A stretch of DNA of 16,864 bases from a virus. Below, one piece after another: positions 13,803-15,592 of the stretch. The translations under genes were made by a program, and so were the position numbers. The stretch is taken from the IMG/VR virus record IMGVR_UViG_3300028920_000354. The stretch is one strand, 5' to 3'. The first letter of the stretch is position 1. Every line of letters starts with the position of its first letter. The notes under the pieces are model-generated. The model was not told the DNA's origin and did no database searches. It worked only from the letters and a program-made list of their open reading frames with translations.

Positions 13803-14471
13803 ATGTATCGCAAGTATGAGAAAACCTTTAGGTTGGTTACAGAGGGAATCAATGTAAAGGGCAAATTCTCCCTCGATAAAAAAGATCAAAAGAAACTCCT
13901 AACCGGAAAAATCACGATAGAAGAGAAGATGGATGGTGCCAATGTGGGCATAATCCGCAAGAAGGACGGCTTTACGCTCCAGAAAAGACGTGGTCTTGCC
14001 GAGGAGGGCGTCCATCCCCAGTTCTCGTTCTTCTGGAACTGGGCACGCAACAATCAAAACAAAATTGAGAAAATCCCCAAAAAATTCATTGTTTATGGCG
14101 AATTGATGTTTGCCAAGCACATGGTTCCGTATCACGAATTGCCGTCGTATTTTCTTGCGTATGACGTATGGACGGGCAAAGAATACCTCAATTACGAAGA
14201 TAGGATGGAGATTGTCCAGAATTGCGGCTTTAAGAGCGTCCCGCTGCTCTTTCAGGGACATCTTGACCGGGAACTCGAATATTGGCTAAAGAACGCTCTG
14301 TACGCCCCTGGAGTCAAATCTGAGGGCATTGTGGTGAAGAACTACAAAAAACAGATGCGTGGCAAACTGGTCAGGCCTGAATTTCTCAAGAGGCTCGAGG
14401 AAGACGACCATTGGATGAAGGGACCTTTGGTGAAAAACAGCCTAATTGCCGGGGCAAATGTATATGACTAG
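13803..14471 (+). CDS. ATP-dependent RNA (or nick-sealing) ligase of the covalent nucleotidyltransferase superfamily (222 aa)
   Basis: Motif I KMDGANVGI (KxDG with the adenylated lysine), motif III FIVYGELM, motif IV EGIVVKN, motif V KLVRPEF. At 222 aa it is too small to carry a DNA-ligase OB domain. Ends in TAG. Confidence 0.65.
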   Translation: MYRKYEKTFRLVTEGINVKGKFSLDKKDQKKLLTGKITIEEKMDGANVGIIRKKDGFTLQKRRGLAEEGVHPQFSFFWNWARNNQNKIEKIPKKFIVYGELMFAKHMVPYHELPSYFLAYDVWTGKEYLNYEDRMEIVQNCGFKSVPLLFQGHLDRELEYWLKNALYAPGVKSEGIVVKNYKKQMRGKLVRPEFLKRLEEDDHWMKGPLVKNSLIAGANVYD

Positions 14472-14521
14472 CGAGAAGAGCCCTAGACAGTTAAAGTTCA
14501 AGTTAAACCAAGGAGTGCAAA

Positions 14522-14740
14522 ATGTCAGAAAACAAGTATGAGCAGTTGAAGGTTGCGGTTCAGGATCTGCTTTGTGAGTTGAGGATAGGCGAGGTAAGCC
14601 TTAGGATAATGGCGAAAGGTTATTCGCCGAGTTATCCCGGAGGTCCCGGAATGGAAGTAGCTAAGGAGCCCGGCAACGTCGTTCAGATTTCCCAGGTCGT
14701 CGCACAAAAGCTCCTTGACGCCGGGATAGTGGATGAATAA
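14522..14740 (+). CDS. hypothetical protein (72 aa)
   Basis: AAGGAG RBS; overlaps the next gene (ATGAATAA junction). Confidence 0.45.
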   Translation: MSENKYEQLKVAVQDLLCELRIGEVSLRIMAKGYSPSYPGGPGMEVAKEPGNVVQISQVVAQKLLDAGIVDE

Positions 14741-15092
14741 GAAAAGAGACCCCAAGGATCTCCTTGTCAGGGTTACCAAGAAGGATCTGGACATAACCTG
14801 GTACTCGGGTTCCGGGGCGGGAGGGCAGCACCGAAACAAGCACCCTAACTGTTGCCGGATCCAGCATAAAGACAGTGGGACAATGGTCACGGCAGGGGAG
14901 CAAAGGAGCAGGGAGCAAAATCTTCGTTCCGCTTTCCGCCGGTTATGCGAACACAATACATTCAAAACCTGGCTGAAAATCGAGTCTTCAAGGGCGATGC
15001 AGGACAAGCAAGAGATTGAGCGAAAAATACGAGCCGAAGTTAACGAGGCCATGCGTGAAGAAAACCTCAAAATAGAATATTATACTCCATGA
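14733..15092 (+). CDS. ArfB / PrfH-like RF-1-domain protein with a GGQ motif (ribosome-rescue peptidyl-tRNA hydrolase family)
   Basis: LDITWYSGSGAGGQHRNKHPNCCRIQHKDSG...EQRSREQNLRSAFRRL parallels the ArfB/YaeJ core (L.I.A.RaQGaGGQnVNKv.sAV.LRf...eQRSQ.LNRE.AL.RL). The GGQ tripeptide is intact. Confidence 0.7.
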   Translation: MNKKRDPKDLLVRVTKKDLDITWYSGSGAGGQHRNKHPNCCRIQHKDSGTMVTAGEQRSREQNLRSAFRRLCEHNTFKTWLKIESSRAMQDKQEIERKIRAEVNEAMREENLKIEYYTP

Positions 15093-15592
15093 AAATAATA
15101 TTCCTGGATATAGATGGCGTTCTTAACCATCAGTTGTTTTATGAAGAAAAATCCCAGAACCAAAGGTATAAAGAAATTGGGCATCCCTTATGCGACCTTG
15201 ATCCCAAAGCCGTTGGATATCTGAATACCCTTATAGAAGATACGGGGGCTCAAGTCGTAATCTCCTCCACTTGGCGCAAGGGAAAAACAGTACAAGCGAT
15301 GCAGGAATTGCTTGAAAAAGTAGGGTTTAAGGGGAAGGTTATAGGGTTAACTCCGGTATTGTATTGGTCGGGAGACTGCAAGACATATCACTCGGCGCCC
15401 CGGGGCTGTGAAATAGTAGAGTGGATGCATAGATTTTCTGAAAGCAAAAATGATTTCATAGAAAGATACGTGATACTCGATGATGATTCGGATATGCTAT
15501 GGCACCAAAGAAACTCTTTTATACTGATTGACGGATATTGCGGTCTAACTCCAACTCAAGTTTACCGGGCAACAAGAATTCTTAACGAATAG
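15089..15592 (+). CDS. HAD-superfamily phosphatase (167 aa), of the type found in RNA end-healing systems
   Basis: Motif I FLDIDGVLN, motif II ISSTWR, Lys in KGK, motif IV ILDDDSD. Ends in TAG. Confidence 0.7.
   Translation: MKIIFLDIDGVLNHQLFYEEKSQNQRYKEIGHPLCDLDPKAVGYLNTLIEDTGAQVVISSTWRKGKTVQAMQELLEKVGFKGKVIGLTPVLYWSGDCKTYHSAPRGCEIVEWMHRFSESKNDFIERYVILDDDSDMLWHQRNSFILIDGYCGLTPTQVYRATRILNE

Follow-up and report, generated by a model that had tools for sequence, protein, structure and literature searches.

A minimal RNA ligase, a stand-alone GGQ-domain protein and a HAD phosphatase as neighbours beside a phage tRNA island, with a possible role in RNA repair

The stretch of viral DNA analysed here, called the window throughout, is IMG/VR record IMGVR_UViG_3300028920_000354 at its whole length of 16,864 nucleotides (nt), and it belongs to a metagenomic contig of 95 kb (ENA ERZ27252253, k141_2989609). 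Six closely packed open reading frames (ORFs) occupy the + strand between positions 13400 and 16864. Three of them, encoding a minimal ATP-dependent RNA ligase, a stand-alone GGQ-domain protein of the release-factor type and a HAD phosphatase, are the main subject of this work. These three genes are most plausibly regarded as neighbours with related functions, set in an accessory region whose content is fluid, and not as a fixed operon. Across phages, the GGQ gene family is associated with RNA repair. A blastn search of 13400-16864 against the INPHARED phages gave 0 matches, and thus no close DNA relative among deposited phages. The PHROGs assignments agree with those of Pfam for the gene string, which reads as follows (lengths in amino acids, aa).

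13803-14471, + strand: minimal ATP-dependent RNA ligase, 222 aa (Pfam RNA_ligase PF09414, E=2.1e-28)
14522-14740, + strand: ORF without assigned function (orf72), 72 aa (from the ORF list; the gene is also called on the source contig)
14733-15092, + strand: stand-alone release-factor-type GGQ domain protein, 119 aa (Pfam RF-1 PF00472, E=3.5e-16)
15089-15592, + strand: HAD_SAK_2 phosphatase, 167 aa (Pfam PF18143, E=7.6e-28)
15597-16262, + strand: MmcB-like PD-(D/E)XK nuclease-fold protein, 221 aa (Pfam MmcB-like, E=9e-6)
16259-16456, + strand: ORF, 65 aa (from the ORF list)

The ligase stop codon is followed by a 50-nt gap before orf72, the end of orf72 and the start of the GGQ gene share 8 nt, the stop codon of the GGQ gene and the start codon of the HAD gene overlap as ATGA, and the MmcB-like gene starts 4 nt past the HAD stop codon. 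An earlier note on this DNA had placed the ligase, GGQ and HAD ORFs at these positions and on this strand and had named their motifs. The ORFs are indeed present, and the motifs are found and are conserved in the family alignments. Its description of three consecutive, translationally coupled genes does not hold, since orf72 intervenes, the gap follows the ligase, and GGQ/HAD is the sole overlapping pair among the three.

The GGQ protein matches the RF-1 domain at 59.6 bits against a cut-off of 35 and belongs to phrog_3122 (E=1.8e-16). The GGQ motif recognised in the earlier note is intact at residues 30-32 and lies within a near-invariant SGxGAGGQHRNK block, in which G30 and G31 are invariant across the family alignment and Q32 is nearly so. 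Two members of the alignment (P0223 and P0237) carry GGM or GGG in place of GGQ and, judged by sequence, may be catalytically altered or inactive variants. The AlphaFold2 (AF2) model (pLDDT 86) consists of a bare GGQ domain and a long helix formed by residues 75-106. The C-terminal segment has a conserved, acidic and hydrophobic motif, V.E.M..ENLKIEY, and residues 76-119 contain 9 K+R against 9 D+E, so that the tail is charge-neutral. The protein is predicted to be a peptidyl-tRNA hydrolase.

The placement of this protein among the known GGQ factors differs from that proposed before. In the sequence search of the PDB the closest matches are domain 3 of mtRF1, RF1 and RF2, together with C12orf65 (E ~5e-7; 6e-7 for C12orf65), while PrfH (E=0.007) and ArfB (E=0.05) are weaker. 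The fold search likewise has RF2, RF1 and mtRF1 at the top, PrfH at rank 8, C12orf65 at rank 32 and ArfB/ICT1 at ranks 45-46. The protein reaches 39.9 bits on the PrfH model TIGR03072 (cut-off 166.65), covering model positions 104-182 of 200, and 21.8 bits on the ArfB model NF006718 (cut-off 100). The models of the canonical release factors are also missed, with 46.5 against 370 bits for prfB and 44.3 against 400 bits for prfA, and the codon-recognition domain PCRF has no Pfam match in the protein. The earlier assignment to the ArfB or PrfH type is therefore not sustained, as the protein fails both curated models and has neither the decoding-site domain of PrfH nor the basic tail of ArfB. Clustering with canonical class-I release factors, which the earlier note had named as the result that would speak against its proposal, is formally what is seen, in that domain 3 of RF1/RF2 is closest, though here as a stand-alone domain. 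In size and as stand-alone, codon-independent GGQ domain proteins, ArfB/YaeJ, ICT1 and mtRF-R (C12orf65) resemble the window protein. However, in ArfB and ICT1 the C-terminal tail is basic and serves as a probe of the empty mRNA channel, whereas the tail of the window protein is neutral and carries ENLKIEY. The protein has no obvious ribosome-targeting module.

Members of this GGQ family are present in 239 deposited phages (tblastn), of which 206 are mycobacteriophages, where they are annotated as 'RF-1 domain peptide chain release factor'. The PHROG 3122 proteins of Mycobacterium phage ScottMcG (gp204) and Tunturiibacter phage Tunturi_3 (gp125) share 34-40% identity over ~90% of the length with the window protein and have the same size and stand-alone architecture.

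The gene neighbourhoods were compared in a census of 83 GGQ-, 87 ligase- and 81 HAD-anchored phage loci and 80 control loci anchored on thymidylate synthase (ThyA), covering 6 kb on each side and searched with profiles seeded on Pfam-verified proteins. The ThyA control is conservative, given that a repair cassette lies 2 kb from the anchor in its seed phage. RNA ligase genes are found within 1 kb of the GGQ gene in 14/83 loci against 2/80 in the control (p=0.003), and a PTP-SAK phosphatase is near it in 26/83 loci against 0/80 (p=3e-9). At the level of the family, phage GGQ genes are therefore associated with RNA repair, and the general idea of the earlier note, a coupling between a GGQ factor and RNA repair in phages, gains independent support from loci other than the window. 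One GGQ subfamily of 29 loci occurs in compact PTP-GGQ-Metallophos-Rnl1 cassettes (PTP in 26/29, ligase in 20/29) and also in longer DUF2828-GGQ-ligase-PTP-kinase arrays, with or without an HD protein.

The compact cassette recurs across L040-L080 (L063:3879-8424 and L040:780-3839 are examples) and consists of a DSP-PTPase (PTP-SAK-like), the GGQ gene, a Metallophos-like gene and an Rnl1-like ligase. An AAA_33 kinase, an HD protein, DUF2828/DUF7788 and a DraRnl-type ligase are frequent additions, and a tRNA array usually precedes it. AAA_33 kinases are encoded in the cassettes of L063, L021 and L121. No description of this recurrent cassette was found in the searched literature.

The subfamily to which the window's GGQ protein belongs has its own instances of ligase neighbours. 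At L015:6001-7493 a short stand-alone GGQ gene of this subfamily is followed 36 nt downstream by RtcB (E=2e-115), the only RtcB among 262 loci, and the two genes form a phage counterpart to PrfH-RtcB of bacteria. The window's subfamily is thus found beside three ligase types: RtcB in L015, an Rnl5-type ligase in L010 and the minimal ligase in the window. Since the ligase type is swapped beside a constant GGQ partner, a functional link can be argued, and the pattern is suggestive of one. About half of 60 GGQ loci scanned have tRNA genes within 6 kb, 18 of them three or more, and tmRNA occurs in two GGQ loci, L005 and L060. In L005 (3998-7608, 3.6 kb) the GGQ gene and the phage tmRNA are accompanied by an SPFH/Band-7 protein and a YAcAr SLOG protein.

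The ligase of the window scores 100.1 bits on PF09414 (cut-off 27) and consists of the nucleotidyltransferase domain alone, with neither an OB domain nor a C-terminal domain. Its homologues (n=96) are nearly all stand-alone PF09414 proteins of 204-254 aa, three being shorter and apparently partial, and many of their contigs are phage-like and very large, reaching 732 kb. In an alignment of 38 homologues K42-x-D44-G45 (motif I), E100, E174-G175 and K188 are invariant, as is a C-terminal motif specific to this family, H203-W204 ... N212. The invariance of the catalytic residues indicates that the gene is under selection and is not a fragment. The AF2 model (pLDDT 92.8) finds T4 Rnl2 and Naegleria Rnl5 (NgrRnl) as its best fold matches, followed by REL1, Rnl3, Rnl1 and Trl1, while DNA ligases score orders of magnitude poorer. 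On its predicted structure the protein is an RNA-ligase-type nucleotidyltransferase with an Rnl2/Rnl5-like fold. The motifs I, III, IV and V listed in the earlier note are intact and invariant in the family, and the fold search together with the invariant catalytic residues argues against a DNA-specific ligase fragment or a pseudogene, which that note had raised as the outcome that would undo its assignment.

Within the RNA ligases the protein stands apart from the characterised families. It stays below the curated cut-off of the Rnl2 model TIGR02307 (20 bits against 197) and gives no match at E<=0.01 to the Rnl5 model TIGR02306, nor to PHA02142, the model of the N-terminal OB domain; for comparison, the L063 ligase reaches 220 bits on TIGR02306 (cut-off 151). 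Sequence searches of the PDB with the ligase and with the HAD protein returned nothing useful. T4 Rnl2, NgrRnl and Deinococcus DraRnl (Rnl5) share the nucleotidyltransferase fold and motifs with the window ligase. In contrast, the C-terminal domain of Rnl2, needed for step 2, and the N-terminal OB domain of DraRnl and NgrRnl are absent from it, and the C-terminal H203-W204 ... N212 motif is the family's own. The N-terminal FRKYEKT of the window ligase resembles what we take to be the N-terminus of T4 Rnl2.

The HAD protein scores 98.1 bits on PF18143 (cut-off 27.5) and matches phrog_1818 (E=1e-37). Its motifs are DIDGV at residues 7-11, SST at 59-61 and DDDSD at 131-135, and D7, D9, S59, S60 and D131-D135 do not vary among 20 homologues. 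The family has more than 2000 homologues, nearly all stand-alone and of ~170 aa. HAD_SAK_2 is filed under RNA 3'-end healing by Pfam and by Iyer et al. 2021 (PMC7824862), an assignment that is itself inferential, and the earlier description of a HAD phosphatase of the end-healing type agrees with this filing.

Whether the ligase, GGQ and HAD genes of the window form a conserved module was judged from the same census, and here many observations weigh against a shared function. The full trio recurs in only one locus, L010, among the 83 GGQ, 87 ligase and 81 HAD loci. There HAD_SAK_2 (2511-3059), an OB+PF09414 ligase of the Rnl5 type (4268-5404) and GGQ (5998-6321) lie within 3.8 kb, differing from the window in ligase type and gene order. 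In the closest GGQ relative, L177 (74% identity), the HAD gene is 2 kb downstream, past seven small ORFs, and no ligase is found within 8 kb of the GGQ gene. In a 250-kb relative ~80 kb separate the ligase gene from the GGQ gene. The GGQ gene is near a minimal ligase in 1/87 loci; in 75 further ligase-anchored loci a GGQ gene is nearby in 0/75 and a HAD gene in 3/75. The HAD gene is near GGQ in 4/83 loci, equal to the control level of 4/80, and a ligase is near the phage HAD_SAK_2 gene in 12/81 loci against 13/80 for ThyA, so there is no excess. The window's GGQ subfamily, in 20 other loci, has mixed neighbours such as DNA methylases and glycosyltransferases, and its ligase association (2/20 against 2/80, p=0.18) is not significant. 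In the Bxz1-like mycobacteriophage ScottMcG the genes flanking GGQ are DNA polymerase III alpha and UvsX, which places it in replication and recombination surroundings and not beside RNA-repair genes. In addition, the searched literature gives no biochemical test of HAD_SAK_2 or of this GGQ family.

These findings lead to the main rival explanation, a chance juxtaposition of independent accessory early genes of the kind packed into the hypervariable regions of large phages, and we give it a substantial chance of being correct. The ligase could then quite well act alone, in RNA repair or otherwise, the HAD protein might be a nucleotide or small-molecule phosphatase, and the GGQ protein might equally serve as a general ribosome-rescue or translation-support factor that accompanies tRNA or tmRNA supplementation. 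The absence of the trio from near relatives, the control-level proximities, the heterogeneous neighbours and the Bxz1-like gene order all favour it, as does the annotation of the HAD homologues, which in 310 isolated phages are almost all labelled 'hypothetical protein'. However, the ATGA overlap of GGQ and HAD within a tight same-strand string, the repetition of the trio in L010, the L015 pairing of the same GGQ subfamily with RtcB and the strong enrichment of the whole GGQ family for ligases and phosphoesterases speak against it.

The neighbours of the ligase family and the MmcB-like gene bear on a second rival, in which the ligase, acting on nicks in duplex RNA or RNA:DNA, the HAD protein as a 3'-phosphatase and the MmcB-like nuclease would make up a nick-repair or DNA-associated set with the GGQ protein as a bystander. 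T4 Rnl2 and NgrRnl, the best structural matches of the ligase, are nick-sealing enzymes, the MmcB-like gene directly follows the HAD gene and belongs to phrog_5429, labelled 'DNA repair protein' (E=8e-16), and the Bxz1-like GGQ homologue is found among replication and recombination genes. On the other hand, the MmcB-like gene has no homologue in the vicinity of GGQ, HAD or ligase genes at the other loci, DNA ligases are far poorer structural matches, and the partners of the ligase family are RNA-repair genes: in the 75 further loci, AAA_33 kinases are nearby in 12/75, Rnl1-like ligases in 6/75 and DUF2828 in 5/75 against 0/80 in the control (p=0.02). This rival is accordingly improbable, and the MmcB-like gene is doubtful as a member of the module. 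In the 732-kb contig L095 the gene directly after the ligase homologue also encodes 119 aa, a GGQ-like length, but its product is a hydrophobic, unrelated protein and was discarded as a candidate.

Two features surround the ligase gene itself. An 18-bp perfect hairpin at 13754-13800 (+) stands directly 5' of the ligase start codon, and its 3' arm includes, and so sequesters, the GGAGG ribosome-binding site of the ligase. It is the sole inverted repeat of at least 14 nt in the whole window, with a computed fold energy of -26.6 kcal/mol (z = -6.2). Such a hairpin is not conserved upstream of the ligase homologues, and a role as a conserved, Shine-Dalgarno-sequestering regulator of the family was rejected. 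On the other side of the ligase, orf72 is preceded by its own AAGGAG ribosome-binding site and matches 67 cluster representatives at E<1e-3, either stand-alone or as a module within larger proteins; it has no Pfam or PHROG family match. Orf72 is a real, though unnamed, domain. With no family of its own and no homologue at the other GGQ, ligase and HAD loci fetched, it was rejected as a conserved partner of GGQ.

Upstream of the gene string lies a tRNA island of seven genes at 8861-12934, found by ARAGORN and confirmed by the Rfam tRNA model (48-72 bits).

8861-8931, + strand: tRNA with a CUA anticodon, suppressor-type (labelled 'Pyl' by ARAGORN; Rfam tRNA 57 bits)
9785-9857 and 9863-9938, + strand: tRNA Lys-UUU, two copies (ARAGORN, Rfam)
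10096-10169, + strand: tRNA Asn-GUU (ARAGORN, Rfam)
10425-10498, + strand: tRNA Asp-GUC (ARAGORN, Rfam)
11368-11440, + strand: tRNA Gln-UUG (ARAGORN, Rfam)
12862-12934, + strand: tRNA Trp-CCA (ARAGORN, Rfam)

The Lys-UUU, Asn, Asp and Gln tRNAs are classical targets of anticodon nucleases. The tRNA genes are interspersed with protein genes, namely a GGDEF diguanylate cyclase gene (10564-11388, +, E=2e-41) and, downstream of it, a PcfJ-like gene (11506-12564) and a short S24-peptidase-like ORF (12530-12826).

The CUA tRNA brings in a third rival: the GGQ protein as an accessory of stop-codon recoding, which would adjust termination in a phage with such a suppressor-type tRNA. The presence of this tRNA and the rarity of TAG, the rarest stop codon (3/25 + strand genes in the window), speak for it. 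But the GGQ protein, having no PCRF domain, cannot read stop codons, the ORFs of the window are intact under the standard code, which rules out TAG recoding of this region, and TAG terminates both the ligase and the HAD gene. We regard this rival as highly improbable. TAG recoding elsewhere in the phage genome may nevertheless occur.

Other genes of the contig give the region its wider setting. A NADAR gene (378-860, E=1e-53) is present in the window, and a nicotinamide adenine dinucleotide (NAD) salvage set is found upstream on the source contig (L260:4967-9795), comprising NAD synthase, an isochorismatase/nicotinamidase-like protein, NAPRTase and an NMNAT-like CTP_transf_like+MazG protein. 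The NADAR and salvage genes together look like an NAD-regeneration, counter-defence island of the phage. With a Nudix gene also present, this content fits a counter-defence theme. A 938-aa vault-protein-like gene (2610-5426, +) has matches to the Major Vault Protein shoulder (E=1e-26) and the Vault_3 repeat (E=1e-10) and 0 NCBIfam matches; its neighbours are a radical SAM gene (1754-2599), DUF7831 and a Nudix-NrtR gene (5488-6204).

The known systems that the window most resembles fall into two kinds. In bacteria, PrfH and RtcB2 rescue the ribosome and then repair it (PMC9304027, PMC9223846). The likeness lies in a gene for a GGQ peptidyl-tRNA hydrolase adjoining one for an RNA ligase, with peptide release followed by resealing. 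Unlike the window protein, which is a GGQ domain only, PrfH has ~200 aa and a decoding-site recognition domain. The window ligase is an ATP-dependent PF09414 enzyme and not RtcB, and the window genes are phage-borne and next to tRNA genes. A coupling of C12orf65-type GGQ proteins to RNA repair has also been proposed (PMC6514570). The second kind comprises the T4 pathway of Pnkp and Rnl1 (and Rnl2) that answers PrrC and the RNA-repair toolkits of jumbo phages, which hold Rnl1/Rnl2 ligases, kinases, tRNAs and a stand-alone 'Swiss-army-knife' HAD as linear phosphatase (Iyer et al. 2021, PMC7824862). Here an ATP-dependent ligase, a HAD-type 3'-phosphatase and phage tRNAs occur together, as in the window. 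In contrast, the window has no 5'-kinase, its ligase is without the accessory domains of Rnl1, Rnl2 and Rnl5, and it has a GGQ protein, which the published account of the jumbo toolkits does not name. The jumbo-phage account does hold that peptidyl-tRNA hydrolysis is needed at jammed ribosomes, invoking Pth2/Pth1 and not a GGQ protein (PMC7824862).

The gene families and the combination of tRNAs, ligase and SAK-HAD are therefore already known. The earlier note had called the arrangement previously undescribed, which is too broad for the tRNA, Rnl ligase and SAK-HAD toolkit, already published (PMC7824862), and stands for the GGQ component, which is absent from that account. A survey of release factors (Burroughs & Aravind 2019) does not mention phages, and the searched literature, outside of which falls Burroughs & Aravind 2016 on RNA repair, yielded no account that places phage GGQ genes in cassettes for RNA repair.

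The reading that we tentatively prefer, with confidence a little short of even, is that the region is an accessory counter-defence part of a large phage, which keeps translation running when the host attacks tRNAs or other RNAs of translation. It draws on firm domain assignments with conserved catalytic motifs, and the PrfH-RtcB2, jumbo-phage and C12orf65 precedents described above agree with it. Phages face a major obstacle in host defences that cut tRNA, among them PrrC, RloC, PARIS and retron/PtuAB-type systems. We infer every step of the mechanism that follows. A host anticodon nuclease or ribotoxin would break a tRNA, possibly on the ribosome, and ribosomes would stall. The GGQ protein would enter the peptidyl-transferase centre and hydrolyse the peptidyl-tRNA ester, freeing the ribosome and the damaged tRNA. 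Since it has neither a decoding domain nor a basic tail, it would probably need a partner or act on split 50S subunits, like mtRF-R/C12orf65. An ATP-dependent ligase needs 5'-phosphate and 3'-OH ends, and end-healing enzymes are therefore required. The HAD phosphatase would take off the 3'-phosphate or 2',3'-cyclic phosphate, and the 5'-phosphate would be supplied by a kinase encoded outside the ~34.5 kb examined, either a host enzyme or one from elsewhere in the phage, unless the breaks already carry 5'-phosphate and 3'-OH ends. The ligase would then seal the break, while the phage tRNAs would replace the targeted species.

The missing kinase is a further point that weighs against this mechanism. 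As the earlier note had remarked, no P-loop polynucleotide kinase is visible in the window: it contains no Walker-A ORF, and the ~34.5 kb examined on the 95-kb source contig, 10 kb of upstream sequence included, have no recorded kinase family. The single Walker-A-type match in L091, the source-contig locus, lies outside the window in a 124-aa ORF with no family match (L091:15693-16064). Neither a 5'-kinase nor a cyclic phosphodiesterase was found in the ~34.5 kb, and the pathway is thus incomplete for breaks with 5'-OH or 2',3'-cyclic-phosphate ends.

A broader extension of the preferred reading is possible, if somewhat unlikely: the stand-alone, release-factor-derived GGQ proteins of phages may make up a class of peptidyl-tRNA hydrolase that is coupled to repair, a third one alongside PrfH and the class proposed for C12orf65. 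Members of such a class might, to speculate, clear ribosomes jammed by cleaved tRNA and pass the RNA to RtcB, Rnl1, Rnl5 or a minimal Rnl2-like ligase. The window could conceivably, though we hold this with rather low confidence, represent a stripped-down, kinase-less version, with the minimal ligase, GGQ and SAK-HAD beside replacement tRNAs.

If the three genes are mere neighbours, the region is a commonplace cluster of accessory genes. The established phage responses to tRNA cutting are tRNA genes and heal-and-seal enzymes. A step that is rarely considered is that a cleaved tRNA on the ribosome keeps its nascent peptide, so that release must precede repair. In bacteria PrfH performs this release for RtcB2, and for phages the searched literature proposes only Pth2 or Pth1. 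If phage GGQ proteins do perform this release, the 222-aa RNA ligase and the small, codon-independent release factors would be at hand as tools, a gene that is annotated across hundreds of phages, the well-studied Bxz1-like mycobacteriophages among them, would acquire a function, and ribosome rescue would be directly tied to phage counter-defence.

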